Positions 3,150-5,725 of a stretch of 41,652 bases of DNA are shown here, in pieces. Position 1 is the stretch's first letter; the number at the start of each line of letters is the position of its first letter. The stretch spans positions 1 to 41,652 of the forward strand of contig SVRH01000003.1 of assembly GCA_015064925.1 (NCBI GenBank), given 5' to 3'. This stretch comes from Oscillospiraceae bacterium (lineage in GTDB: Bacteria; Bacillota; Clostridia; Oscillospirales; CAG-272). The position numbers were made by a program, and so were the translations under genes. The notes under the pieces were generated by a model. It was not told where the DNA came from. It made no database searches and saw nothing but the letters and a program-made list of their open reading frames with translations.

Positions 3150-3165
3150 AAATTTCAACCATCCC

Positions 3166-3194
3166 TTTACAAAGCGGAATTTTTGTGCTATACT
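3166..3194 (+). promoter_or_regulatory. sigmaA promoter of tRNA-Arg
   Basis: TTTACA-17bp-TATACT with TGn extended -10, 11 nt before the tRNA 5' end. Confidence 0.7.
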
Positions 3195-3205
3195 CTTTGT
3201 GTTAT

Positions 3206-3282
3206 CTACCCGTGGCACAGCTGGATAGCGCGTCAGACTCCGACTCTGAAGGTCGAAGGTTCGAATCCTTTCGGGTAGGCCA
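3206..3282 (+). tRNA. tRNA-Arg (anticodon CCG)
   Basis: Acceptor stem CTACCCG/CGGGTAG, D loop AGCTGGATAG, anticodon arm TCAGA-CT-CCG-AC-TCTGA, T loop GGTTCGAATCC, encoded CCA end; 77 nt. Confidence 0.97.
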
Positions 3283-3283
3283 G

Positions 3284-3317
3284 AAAAAAGCCATTCGCAA
3301 AAGCGAATGGCTTTTTT
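3284..3317 (+). terminator. Intrinsic terminator after tRNA-Arg (potentially bidirectional)
   Basis: AAAAAA-GCCATTCGC-AAAA-GCGAATGGC-TTTTTT. Confidence 0.85.
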
Positions 3318-3319
3318 CA

Positions 3320-3504
3320 GTGAAATTCGCCTTCGGCGAGTGAAATATGGCTTCGCCATGTGAAATACTGTGCTAAAGCACGTGTGAAATATTTGCTACG
3401 CAAATGTGAGGAGGCGAATTTTATTTCACATTGCGACGAAGGAGCAATACTTCACAATTTCCAAAGGAAATTATTTCACATTCGGCAGGTGCCGAATATT
3501 TCAC
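3320..3504. repeat. Structured GTGAAAT/ATTTCAC box-and-hairpin element, copy 1 (candidate ncRNA or structured DNA site)
   Basis: GTGAAAT at 3320, 3340, 3360, 3384; ATTTCAC/ACTTCAC at 3423, 3449, 3473, 3498. Seven short hairpins lie between the boxes (e.g. TCGCC-TTC-GGCGA, ATGGC-TTC-GCCAT, ATTTGC-TAC-GCAAAT, AATTTCC-AAA-GGAAATT, ATTCGGCA-GG-TGCCGAAT). Confidence 0.9.
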
Positions 3505-3533
3505 TTGAAAAACTTACCGTGCTATGATATAAT
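3505..3533 (+). promoter_or_regulatory. sigmaA promoter abutting element copy 1, driving the four-helix-bundle gene
   Basis: TTGAAA-17bp-TATAAT with TGn extended -10; the -35 starts at the base right after the last ATTTCAC. Confidence 0.8.
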
Positions 3534-3556
3534 AACGGCAGAAAAGCGGTGTTACT

Positions 3557-3916
3557 ATGGCAGATTCAAAGCTTCGTGACCTATCCACAGATTTTGCGGT
3601 TAAAGTTATCAAAACGTGTGATGGCATAAAAGGGCATTATTCTCTTGTAAATCAGTTGGAGCGTTCCTCTACCTCAATTGGTGCCAATATTCACGAAGCG
3701 AATTATGCTCATAGCAAAGCCGACTTTGTTGCCAAGTTTCAAATTGCACTGAAGGAGTGCTACGAAACGGAATATTGGCTTGAATTATTCGTGAAATCCG
3801 AATTGCTGGATCGCGAGATTGCAAAAGAACTTTATAATCAGTGCGGAACGATTCGCAGAATGTTGATAGCCTCTATCAATACGGCGAAGGAGAACTCAAA
3901 TGACGGTAAAAAATGA
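3557..3916 (+). CDS. Four helix bundle protein (23S rRNA intervening-sequence protein/TIGR02436-like, Avd-related fold)
   Basis: Family signature QLERSSTSIGANIHEA-x4-SKADFVAKFQIALKECYETEYWLEL; 119 aa. Confidence 0.9.
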   Translation: MADSKLRDLSTDFAVKVIKTCDGIKGHYSLVNQLERSSTSIGANIHEANYAHSKADFVAKFQIALKECYETEYWLELFVKSELLDREIAKELYNQCGTIRRMLIASINTAKENSNDGKK

Positions 3917-4310
3917 TATAGTTTTGTGGGACAACGGAATAGATAAGTTTTGTTTATTAAAAGCACCAAACGAACAGCAATATAAATATATTGACGGTAT
4001 CCCTTGCATCACGTTTGGAATTTCTTATGAAAACACGAGTTTTAAGGGGTACGACACCTTTACTTTGTTTGACCATTTTTATTCTAACATAGTTAACGAG
4101 ATAGAAAGCACATATACTTCGCTAAACGGTTCTTTTCGCATCTATGACGTTGGTGCAGATACCGATGGGTATATTGAGGTTGTTATGACAAATGGGAAAC
4201 TATCTGTCAAAGGTCAGCTTGGCGCATCTTTTTCTTCACATTCGTTAATGTTTGAACTTGAAGCAGACCAAACTTTAGTAGGAAATCTGCTACAAGAGAT
4301 TACGTTTTGA
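3900..4310 (+). CDS. Hypothetical protein, possibly WapI-like immunity protein
   Basis: 136-aa AT-rich ORF overlapping the upstream gene by 17 nt. Acidic and beta-rich; C-terminus GKLSVKGQL...LMFELEADQTLV recalls WapI-family immunity proteins (from memory, unverified). Confidence 0.6.
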   Translation: MTVKNDIVLWDNGIDKFCLLKAPNEQQYKYIDGIPCITFGISYENTSFKGYDTFTLFDHFYSNIVNEIESTYTSLNGSFRIYDVGADTDGYIEVVMTNGKLSVKGQLGASFSSHSLMFELEADQTLVGNLLQEITF

Positions 4311-4399
4311 TTTTATGAGCGTAAGACTTTCACATTATCTACGCGCCTTTTTTGCCTTTGTACCTATGCTTACGCACCGTTTGCGCGCTTCTTCGCAAC

Positions 4400-4441
4400 A
4401 AAAAACGCACTTTTGTCTACCAAGACAATGTGTGCTTTTTT
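4400..4441 (+). terminator. Terminator-like hairpin preceding element copy 2
   Basis: AAAAAA-CGCAC-TT-TTGTCT-ACCA-AGACAA-TGTGTGC-TTTTTT; imperfect stem plus U tract, in the same position relative to the element as the 3284-3317 terminator. Confidence 0.6.
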
Positions 4442-4443
4442 CA

Positions 4444-4622
4444 ACGAAATTCGCCTTCGGCGAGTGAAATATGGCTTCGCCATGTGAAATACTGTGCTAA
4501 AGCACGTGTGAAATATTTGCTACGCAAATGTGATGGACGAATTTCATTTCACATTGCGACGAAGGAGCAATACTTTACTATGCCGATAGGCATAACTTCA
4601 CTACGGCTTGCCGCAACTTCGC
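4444..4622. repeat. Structured GTGAAAT/ATTTCAC box-and-hairpin element, copy 2
   Basis: 4446-4533 is identical to 3322-3409 (88 bp). Boxes at 4444 (ACGAAAT), 4464, 4484, 4508 and 4546, 4572, 4595, 4616 (ACTTCGC). The last two side hairpins differ in sequence from copy 1 but still pair. Confidence 0.9.
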
Positions 4623-4648
4623 TTTTAATGATTATACAAGGATACGCC

Positions 4649-4677
4649 TTGTTTTATTTGCAAAAGTGTAGTATAAT
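4649..4677 (+). promoter_or_regulatory. sigmaA promoter after element copy 2
   Basis: TTGTTT-17bp-TATAAT; the -35 overlaps the 3' arm of hairpin ACAAGG-ATACG-CCTTGT. Confidence 0.65.
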
Positions 4678-4698
4678 GGAACAAAGAAGAAAGGCGGG

Positions 4699-5070
4699 AT
4701 GAGTATGCCTCACGGATACAAAAGAGAATATAACGATGTTTTATATTTTAAGAAGGATCATTTTTGCCCCGAATGTAAAACAAAATTAGATAAAGTTCCT
4801 GTTTCAAGAGTTATTAATTCCGGCTCACCTGAAGCCAAGAATTTTGATTTCAGTATGCCCGGAGGGAATTTTGCTGTAGGTGATATTCAATTCATTTGGG
4901 ATGAATTTGAATGTCCAAACTGCCAAAAACACCTTACCGTAAATGAAATGAAAGCAATTGAGGGAATCCCATTACCTAAAAAACCAAGTAAATGGAGAAA
5001 AATACTGTTTTTGATATTTGGTATTCTTTTTTTAATTGCAGTAGCATTGATAAGAGAATATTTAAGTTGA
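4699..5070 (+). CDS. Hypothetical zinc-ribbon membrane protein
   Basis: CPEC and CPNC pairs, basic patch KKPSKWRK, then a C-terminal TM helix; AAGGCGG RBS; AT-rich. Confidence 0.8.
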   Translation: MSMPHGYKREYNDVLYFKKDHFCPECKTKLDKVPVSRVINSGSPEAKNFDFSMPGGNFAVGDIQFIWDEFECPNCQKHLTVNEMKAIEGIPLPKKPSKWRKILFLIFGILFLIAVALIREYLS

Positions 5071-5209
5071 CCTTTTGTTCACTTTTGCCTCAACTTTGAA
5101 CCTTATATCACGATGAAGGCAAAAAGCGCTTCACTTCCTGTTTTGCTTGCGCAGTACTTCACAGTTTTTAGGTTGATTAACACACAATTGAATGAAAGGA
5201 ATACACGAT

Positions 5210-5725
5210 ATGTATCACGGCATCCAAATCAGCCAAACGCGGCTGATAGCCAACAACATCATTTTCACCTGCTTGTTGCTTATAACCGTAGGTCTTGGAA
5301 TTTGGTATCTTATCTTTACCCACACAAGCGGCAATCTTAAAGATAGAAAGCGCATCAAAAGGCTGAAACAAAAAGCCAATCGTGACCCTTACGCAGAAAA
5401 GCAGCTGCAAAAATTAAAACGAAAGCAAAAATCGGTCAAAAAGACCAGTCTAAGCACCGATATACTGGTTTGGAGCTTACTTATCGTGCTTTTATCATTG
5501 AATCTATTTCTGGCAATCATCCCCGGCTGGACCGATTATATTAAAAAAGACTACGTAGTTTACGAAGGAAGCTTTGTGGTCGACCGATACACAAGAGGCA
5601 GTCATATAAATTTAGAAGACGGCACAAGGCTGACGGGCGCTCTTGATTTGGGCGAAGGCGAGCACACCGGCAGGATCGTATATTCCCGCCGCACCAAAAT
5701 TGCGCTCGGAAACGATATGAAATAG
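5210..5725 (+). CDS. Hypothetical membrane protein (2 TM helices, very basic linker)
   Basis: Start moved to ATG 5210 behind AAAGGA RBS. Two hydrophobic helices flank a K/R-rich loop, followed by a small beta-rich C-terminal domain. Confidence 0.75.
   Translation: MYHGIQISQTRLIANNIIFTCLLLITVGLGIWYLIFTHTSGNLKDRKRIKRLKQKANRDPYAEKQLQKLKRKQKSVKKTSLSTDILVWSLLIVLLSLNLFLAIIPGWTDYIKKDYVVYEGSFVVDRYTRGSHINLEDGTRLTGALDLGEGEHTGRIVYSRRTKIALGNDMK

Follow-up and report, generated by a model that had tools for sequence, protein, structure and literature searches.

A bacterial four-helix-bundle protein as the probable reader of the heptamer-box arrays that precede its gene

In a 41,652-nt stretch of DNA from an Oscillospiraceae bacterium (GenBank assembly GCA_015064925.1, contig SVRH01000003.1, positions 1 to 41,652 of the forward strand; hereafter the window), a gene for a small protein of the 23S-IVP/Avd-like family (PF05635/TIGR02436) stands directly behind a structured element composed of repeated 7-nt boxes and small hairpins. 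The locus raises the question of whether this protein recognizes the repeat beside which it is encoded. An earlier, sequence-only reading of the window had proposed that the protein may bind either the boxes or the junctions of the element. Comparison of this gene and its relatives with their neighbouring arrays indicates that the four-helix-bundle protein is probably the cognate, sequence-specific binder of its own repeat, because the sequence of the boxes co-varies in a modular fashion with particular residues of the protein. The box-binding part of the earlier proposal thus gains support from both association and residue-base co-variation, while the junction idea gains none, as the nested right partners do not mirror the changes seen in left boxes. 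The features on which the argument depends are the following.

3166-3194, + strand: promoter-like site of the tRNA gene, TTTACA-17-TATACT (motif scan, 10/12 matches)
3206-3282, + strand: tRNA-Arg (CCG) gene, directly behind which the module begins
3283-3318, no strand: 16-bp terminator hairpin between an A-run and a T-run (sequence and folding)
3318-3412, + strand: gene-distal arm, with GTGAAAT boxes at 3320, 3340, 3360 and 3384 and a small hairpin behind each
3318-3395, + strand: Rfam RF01706 (Gut-1) match of the gene-distal arm, 63 bits (cut-off 50)
3413-3419, + strand: centre segment GGCGAAT, complementary to ATTCGCC at 3325-3331 on the 5' side of the first hairpin
3418-3506, - strand: gene-proximal arm, reading on the + strand as ATTTCAC at 3423, 3473 and 3498 and ACTTCAC at 3449, with a hairpin before each
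3418-3506, - strand: Rfam RF01706 (Gut-1) match of the gene-proximal arm, 48.2 bits, under the cut-off of 50
3505-3533, + strand: sigma-70-type promoter of the four-helix-bundle gene, TTGAAA-17-TATAAT, with an extended -10 (motif scan)
3557-3916, + strand: four-helix-bundle gene (PF05635/TIGR02436), 119 aa, with Ser4, Arg7 and Glu35 (hidden Markov models, HMMs, and an AlphaFold model)

The product of the open reading frame (ORF) at 3557-3916 matched PF05635 (E 1.3e-25, 90.1 bits; cut-off 33.8) and TIGR02436 (E 6.1e-29, 100.4 bits; cut-off 24), so that the family assignment made in the sequence-only reading stands above both curated thresholds. An AlphaFold model, for which 18 relatives served as input, consisted of four helices with a pLDDT of 92. 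It superposed on 2rld with a template-modelling (TM) score of 0.87 at 41% identity (profile E 5.9e-51) and on 2gsc with a TM score of 0.82-0.84; these are the two solved members of PF05635, and each entry contains five chains. The protein is a member of PF05635/TIGR02436 and an up-down four-helix bundle like the solved members. The element that precedes its gene is an inverted pair of Gut-1 motifs located between the terminator of tRNA-Arg and the gene's promoter, and the gene-distal arm holds, in addition to its four exact boxes, a fifth, degenerate one at 3406-3412. The final exact box, which is the reverse complement of GTGAAAT, occupies 3498-3504, and the -35 hexamer therefore begins at the very next base, as the sequence-only reading had noticed. 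The promoter matches the consensus at 11 of 12 positions and has a TG ahead of the -10.

The generality of this arrangement was surveyed in 151 genomes of the source's family, 88 of which contain Gut-1 (751 matches) and 81 of which contain PF05635 (201 matches). The best 150 of the 201 PF05635 matches, selected by HMM score alone, defined 149 loci, in which our own HMM located 155 hits, some of them fragments. The 450 nt upstream of each hit were classed by algorithm, and every non-hit was then read by eye. Heptamer-box arrays were found directly upstream of 150 of the 155 hits: 98 are inverted doublets with boxes separated by hairpins (class 1a; 72 by the strict algorithm and 26, decayed or cut by a contig end, by eye), 37 have the same layout with contiguous heptamers (class 1b), and 15 consist of a single arm touching the ribosome-binding site, mostly right behind the stop codon of a housekeeping gene (class 2). 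For the remaining five, an upstream array was absent or not assessable. Seen from the gene side, the link to an array is near-obligate, and a lack of association between the element and this gene family, which the sequence-only reading had named as the outcome that would speak against it, was clearly not obtained. The strict detector called 72 of the 155 upstream regions as compared with 10 of 3869 tiles of the source genome, 8 of the 10 being known elements. A promoter-like site was present in the last 80 nt of 60 of 96 class-1a modules versus 115 of 2000 random windows. Because the boxes differ in other genera, a detector based on exact words missed most elements there, and word-agnostic detectors were used instead. 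Among the 80 closest of roughly 600 or more relatives in all prokaryote genomes, 43 strict and 23 weaker detector calls were made; these relatives come mostly from Clostridia metagenome-assembled genomes labelled Oscillospiraceae, Acutalibacteraceae or Christensenellaceae, with two Victivallaceae and one Akkermansia contig among them.

The boxes themselves behave as constrained sequences. Inside an element, the 8-10 boxes share a mean pairwise identity of 0.81, as against 0.34 for the hairpin arms next to them. The arms did not, therefore, arise by recent copying, and the constraint acts on the box sequence itself. As box types vary between loci and even within genomes, whatever reads them must be type-specific. 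The four-helix-bundle gene is the only regular neighbour of the arrays, since the downstream genes nearly always differ: a next ORF was present for 143 of the 155 hits, and 105 of these ORFs were singletons, the biggest cluster having four members.

Co-variation between box and protein was tabulated for 133 modules from the box consensus and the protein sequence, and in 115 of them the nucleotide preceding the T[GT]A core could be assigned as A or G. When this base is G, Ser4 and Arg7 occur together in 50 of 54 proteins. When it is A, Arg7 occurs in none of 61, and position 4 is Asn in 47, Asp in 12 and a gap in 2. When every protein column was scanned for association with this base, column 4 scored 0.82, column 7 scored 0.73 and the next best 0.36; because the base is predicted by columns 4 and 7 alone, plain shared ancestry would not be expected to give the pattern. 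For phylogenetic contrasts a tree was built without the first 14 residues. On this tree the base before the core changes about 16 times, and independent pairs on supported branches were concordant in five of five cases (three of three with FastTree).

The 3' half of the box follows a different part of the protein. Glu35 accompanies ..AAAT in 48 of 48 cases and Gly35 accompanies G at box position 5 in 29 of 29, and the four combinations of N-terminus and body correspond to boxes GTGAAAT, ATGAAAT, GTGA[AT]GT and ATGATGT. Because the two halves of the box follow different parts of the protein, recombination of the array together with the 5' end of the gene, that is, linkage alone, is insufficient as an explanation. 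The Ser/Asn rule was also kept in classes 1b and 2, which were not used for its discovery (Ser accompanies G in 33 of 33 rows and Asn accompanies A in 12 of 12, by eye and after exclusion of 7 unclear or broken rows), as well as in a pair of adjacent genes that share a contig (L059) and in a faecal contig labelled as phage. Residue 46 (His or Arg in ANI.EA) showed no clean match to any box base. Typing of boxes by their top 7-mer was tried and dropped, the confounding by register being too strong.

Gene and element may be viewed as one module, in which an array of identical 7-nt boxes is followed by the gene of the protein that would read them. In the window, the module is built of GTGAAAT/ATTTCAC boxes, 4-5 per arm in two inverted arms with small hairpins between the boxes, and each subunit of a pentameric ring might read one box; this stoichiometry is proposed because 4-5 boxes per arm are typical and the solved relatives are pentameric. 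The base 5' of the TGA core would be read by residues 4 and 7, where helix 1 begins, and the 3' half by residue 35 in helix 2, with its surroundings. The hairpins could serve as compact spacers that place single-stranded boxes side by side, and as they would fold away, a hairpin-spaced array (class 1a) would be equivalent to a contiguous one (classes 1b and 2). Occupancy of the array most likely sets the expression of the protein itself: with the last box touching the -35 and a promoter-like site following the arrays, binding would most simply result in autoregulation. Where solo arrays of this box type occur in other parts of the genome, they would offer the protein additional sites.

Several observations weigh against a cognate binder, some of them from the co-variation table and others from the element and the source genome. 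A template fixed the register of the boxes, 7 rows being set by hand, and no assignment was made for 18 of the 133 modules, of which 8 have AGCTAAAT boxes and 10 have other cores. The exceptions among the G rows are two proteins with Thr/His, one with Lys/Ala and one with Ser/Ser. In addition, the AGCTAAAT group (8 rows, outside the count) has Ser4 but Leu7, and the large hairpin-less AGTGAA group of class 1b has Ser4 but Met7; the Arg7 part of the rule is less general than the Ser/Asn part. Five independent pairs give p = 0.0625, which is the lowest value attainable with them and leaves <0.05 out of reach, and the tree, derived from about 100 columns, is weakly supported. The strand that appears to fold is the complement of the orientation of the Rfam model, and the position of the array between a terminator and a promoter makes its route to a single strand or a transcript puzzling. 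Finally, most arrays of the source genome lack a neighbouring gene of this family.

The source assembly (1.77 Mb, 123 contigs, 88% complete) contains 17 Gut-1 matches, and a word-agnostic survey recovered 14 arrays of five box types: GTGAAAT (7 arrays), GTGAAGT (3), GTGATAT (2), ATATCATC (1) and ATGAATTG (1). It has two PF05635 genes only, both directly behind an array, the intact one being the window gene with its GTGAAAT boxes and the other a 3'-truncated gene with GTGAAGT boxes; a remnant of a third gene was also found.

Contig C113, 10461-10748: truncated four-helix-bundle gene, cut after about 76 family residues
Contig C38, 2560-2760: remnant of a third gene, its last ~20 codons behind half an array

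Modules decay by deletion, and arrays outnumber genes in this genome. No four-helix-bundle gene adjoins 11 of the 14 arrays, which are followed by other, unrelated low-GC genes (ADP-ribosylglycohydrolase, radical-SAM protein, small unknown ORFs), and the GTGATAT and ATATCATC types are without such a gene anywhere in the assembly. Arrays thus persist without a partner in cis, and from the element side the link is loose. These observations, together with the excess of Gut-1 over PF05635 matches in the family (751 > 201), would suit a passenger model, in which the element is a dispersed repeat that carries a promoter and a terminator and punctuates islands of foreign genes, its boxes being structural or read by some other host factor. 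Such a model is nonetheless unlikely. It sits badly with the near-obligate link on the gene side (150/155), a generic host factor cannot account for five box types per genome, each uniform across both arms, and the model offers no account of co-variation in which one base follows only columns 4 and 7 and another is tied to residue 35.

Both the identity of the folded strand and the chemical nature of the presumed partner bear on how the boxes might be read. A second copy of the element lies behind the gene.

4405-4603, + strand: second element copy, starting with a terminator-like hairpin
4442-4519, + strand: Gut-1 arm of the second copy, 62.7 bits
4536-4603: degenerate inverted arm of the second copy, 33.4 bits, under the cut-off of 50

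The left arms of the two copies are identical across ~100 nt. GTGAAAT occurs 15 times in the window versus 6.3 +/- 2.3 times in shuffled sequences, none of 100 of which reached 15, and 11 of the 15 occurrences fall inside the two elements. The element folded far better than shuffled sequences did, with z values of -8.8 and -9.9. The orientation of folding was judged from 414 hairpins counted on the ATTTCAC-reading strand. On this strand GNA triloops outnumber TNC triloops by 166 to 11, GNRA tetraloops outnumber TYNC tetraloops by 44 to 2, and G.T pairs outnumber A.C pairs by 8 to 1. This asymmetry of loops and wobbles favours the strand reading ATTTCAC, the complement of the Rfam Gut-1 orientation, as the one that folds. 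The gene-proximal arm would then fold on the sense strand of the gene and the distal arm on the other, and the inverted doublet would offer one functional arm whichever strand is exposed.

Gut-1 is filed by Rfam as a small RNA, and each arm could be a free-standing small RNA gene beside an unrelated protein, a co-regulated one or an unspecific RNA chaperone. Two arms above the Rfam threshold (63 and 62.7 bits), stems that vary with their pairing kept, the z values given above and contigs from four gut metatranscriptome runs that cover arrays, although a sequence may be present in an RNA library without being transcribed, would be in line with this interpretation. It is very improbable, as the loops and wobbles indicate the strand opposite to the Rfam orientation, a promoter for an RNA made from the arms was not found, the arms lying between a terminator and the gene promoter, some sister modules are entirely without hairpins, and the co-variation argues for specificity.

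With regard to the chemistry of the partner of a cognate binder, c-GNA-g triloops are unusually stable in DNA. These triloops and the location of the arrays between terminator and promoter lean toward single-stranded or extruded DNA, whereas Avd binds RNA and, at one class-2 locus (L020), the promoter lies ahead of the heptamers, which would consequently fall within the mRNA leader there; taken together, the evidence is mixed. Across 3150-4750 of the window, the contigs of the four gut metatranscriptome runs had a higher summed depth over the arrays than over the cargo genes, a comparison that involves a multi-species repeat, strandless and end-less contigs and possibly DNA. On the folded strand, the variable base of the box is C with Ser/Arg and T/U with Asn. 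PUF repeats pair Ser plus Arg with C and Asn with U/T. Pairing of boxes across the two arms is predicted by folding, and compensatory change in the nested partner boxes lends it no support, whether they were counted from outside (12/126 partners vs 46/566 non-partners) or from inside (13/146 vs 45/546), in a test whose power is limited since the boxes of one element are all alike.

The hairpin at 3283-3318 looks alike from both sides because the A-run and the T-run bracket its stem. A hairpin of different sequence is kept in the terminator position of most related modules, and an inner stem-loop is conserved in some types. By pairing with the 5' side of the first hairpin, the centre segment could close the distal arm in an alternative fold. 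The complementarity was also seen by eye, with other letters, at three further loci (L027, L032 and L039), and the two segments change jointly from one box type to another (ATTCGCC/GGCGAAT, TTTGCC/GGCAAA and, in the GTGAAGT type, a longer pair; by eye). At several class-1b loci (L134, L143, L152, L155 and others), the 3' half of the upstream terminator recurs in the centre together with its T-run, and another terminator-like hairpin separates the proximal arm from the promoter.

The placement of the modules and the genes that accompany them raise the further possibility of mobility. In the window, the two element copies enclose the four-helix-bundle gene and one unrelated ORF, and two more ORFs follow the second copy.

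3900-4310, + strand: ORF of 136 aa overlapping the stop codon of the four-helix-bundle gene, without family
4699-5725, + strand: two low-GC cargo ORFs behind copy 2, of 123 aa (with zinc-ribbon-like Cys pairs) and 177 aa

The 136-aa ORF had no match in Pfam, NCBIfam or PADLOC, and it was ruled out as a conserved partner, as the downstream neighbours of four-helix-bundle genes are unrelated; it is variable cargo. The GC contents of the 123-aa and 177-aa ORFs are 0.33 and 0.43 vs 0.57-0.59 in the flanking genes. A tRNA gene lies on the same strand within 450 nt upstream of 43 of 94 class-1a, 22 of 36 class-1b and none of 15 class-2 modules, with 17 tRNA identities represented; chance would place far fewer class 1a and 1b modules directly behind tRNA genes. 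In a genome of the same genus (G008), which shares the HAD-tRNA-Arg neighbourhood (73% identity), only a plain terminator stands behind the tRNA. Because of this siting beside tRNA genes, the empty site in the congener, frequent decay and foreign-looking cargo, the module fits a selfish, or at least fast-turning-over, element, and such a character is compatible with the binding model.

A stronger version of this idea holds that the module is a mobile cassette akin to the ORF-bearing intervening sequences of rRNA or to non-autonomous transposons, the arrays being its ends or recombination sites, the enzyme being encoded elsewhere and the protein having no role in recognition. Patchy presence, exemplified by the syntenic tRNA-Arg site of G008, would agree with it, as would the decayed genes on C113 (cut at the 3' end) and C38 (reduced to ~20 last codons), the many arrays at contig ends, the location of about half of the modules behind tRNA genes and the cargo genes lying between direct copies of the element. 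Neither a target duplication nor a linked recombinase was found, however, and the only Y1 transposase of the genome is of the IS200 type with no arrays nearby. Both arms are located upstream of the gene rather than around it, and mobility would not yield a modular residue-to-base pattern. Mobility and binding are not exclusive; what is quite unlikely is only the clause that denies the protein any part in recognition.

Similar cargo is found elsewhere in the source genome, where arrays punctuate short runs of low-GC genes (GC 0.32-0.43 vs about 0.55-0.59) in a manner resembling cassette arrays, and no recombinase was found with them. The cargo in these runs includes an ADP-ribosylglycohydrolase, a radical-SAM protein and several small family-less ORFs. 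The array-linked runs of the source genome (G000) are the following.

Contig C83, 337-2766: array-linked low-GC run
Contig C91, 22980-24469: array-linked low-GC run
Contig C119, 246-1881: array-linked low-GC run
Contig C120, 15172-15873: array-linked low-GC run
Contig C43, 11887-12213: array-linked low-GC run

How the proposed pair of protein and repeat relates to known systems was considered next to these results. The nearest described object is the ORF-bearing intervening sequence of 23S rRNA, of which the window module is a free-standing variant. The two share the protein family, tandem heptamer repeats directly upstream of the ORF and complementary arms, and both are linked to a stable RNA, the intervening sequence being inside rRNA and the window module behind tRNA genes. 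They differ in that the window module is outside rRNA, has both arms upstream of the gene, and possesses hairpin-spaced boxes, a sigma-70-type promoter of its own and scattered solo arrays. The absence of rRNA from the window, already remarked upon in the sequence-only reading, agrees with an Rfam scan of the window that returned two Gut-1 matches and one tRNA only. A Xanthomonas homologue has been described as a homopentamer, and heptamer repeats were noted to precede the S23p ORF in an rRNA intervening sequence; in the part of that report available here, no role in reading the repeats is stated for the protein (PMC4990558).

In the particle of diversity-generating retroelements (DGRs), the Avd protein forms a barrel of five subunits to which a dedicated, structured RNA element is bound (10.1101/2023.10.23.563531). 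The structural kinship to Avd suggested by the sequence-only reading is apparent from the model, which has the same fold (TM 0.81 with PDB 4dwl, from the Bordetella phage retroelement, and 0.79 with the ribonucleoprotein 8ub7). Unlike Avd, to which its sequence is about 10% identical, the window protein would have an array of repeated boxes rather than a template RNA as its partner. A DGR was ruled out: the lack of a reverse transcriptase, earlier reported for the window, extends to the entire 1.77-Mb, 88%-complete assembly, which has no match to PF00078.

Gut-1 was described from human-gut metagenomes alone and filed as a stand-alone small RNA (Weinberg et al., 2010, PMC2864571). The distal arm of the window module matches RF01706 over its full length above threshold, and the UGAAAU linkers of the motif correspond to the boxes. 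Unlike the motif as filed, the arm makes up one half of an inverted doublet and is tied to a protein gene; Gut-1 is present in 88 of the 151 genomes of one family, many box variants are scored poorly by the Rfam model, and the arm seems to fold on the opposite strand. Similarities to REP/REPIN-RAYT systems are also evident, including dispersed hairpin repeats arranged as inverted doublets, the coexistence of several families per genome and the location of one member of the repeat family beside the gene of a protein proposed to act on the repeats. Unlike in those systems, the linked protein is a non-enzymatic four-helix bundle rather than a Y1 HUH transposase, and the repeat is an array of 7-nt boxes. 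A RAYT was ruled out, the sole PF01797 Y1 gene being IS200-like without arrays around it.

Contig C44 of the source genome, 11920-12390: IS200-type Y1 transposase gene (PF01797), behind a terminator hairpin and without Gut-1-type arrays

Precedents exist for the reading of short repeated words. TRAP on GAG repeats and the PUF repeats employ one subunit or repeat per short nucleic-acid word with a simple side-chain code, and the omega repressor recognizes contiguous 7-bp heptads in direct and inverted order beside promoters. These proteins have folds unrelated to that of the window protein, and hairpin-separated words are not known from those systems. A paper on TAACTGA heptamer repeats calls for a repeat-binding protein (PMC4679880), and a search of that paper for the terms 'S23', 'intervening sequence' and 'four helix' found none of them. 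A survey of CRISPR-linked genes lists '23S rRNA IVP' among the domains tied to CRISPR adaptation modules (PMC10910872); we would guess that box arrays beside four-helix-bundle genes might be miscalled as CRISPR arrays by detectors. The literature search found no paper linking PF05635/TIGR02436 to repeat arrays, the nearest statement being the remark on heptamers in PMC4990558. As far as has been seen, the recognition pattern and the strand assignment are new.

To our knowledge, PF05635/TIGR02436 proteins, which are common in bacteria, have no known function except that of Avd in retroelements, Gut-1 has been an orphan motif since 2010, and the heptamer repeats reported from intergenic DNA of bacteria are without a known binding protein. 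If the protein does read the neighbouring repeat, the family, Gut-1 and the intergenic heptamers would all gain a testable explanation, and the residue-to-base pattern names the exact mutants and oligonucleotides with which to test it. A broader generalization is possible, although we incline somewhat against it: IVP/Avd-like proteins might constitute a large family of programmable readers of tandem heptamers with a simple residue-base code, in which gene and array co-diversify into orthogonal specificities. In such a family, each ring of five subunits would recognize four to five single-stranded 7-nt words, whose individual bases would be specified by residues 4, 7 and 35. If true, this idea would explain the Gut-1 motif, the intergenic heptamer repeats and the ORFs of rRNA intervening sequences together, and would provide a small protein scaffold whose nucleic-acid specificity can be both read and rewritten.

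A search with PADLOC for defence systems gave no match below E 5e-4 for the four-helix-bundle protein or for 10 cargo proteins. Close relatives of the window protein were encountered on two unverified faecal contigs labelled 'Bacteriophage sp.' (L258, MT835590.1 13992-15224, and MT835815.1; 71% and 54% identity), the first of which carries a full array of the ATGAAAT type together with an Asn4 protein. Relatives at <60% identity are encoded in 39 plasmid records, of which 21 are Nostoc plasmids, often with several per record.

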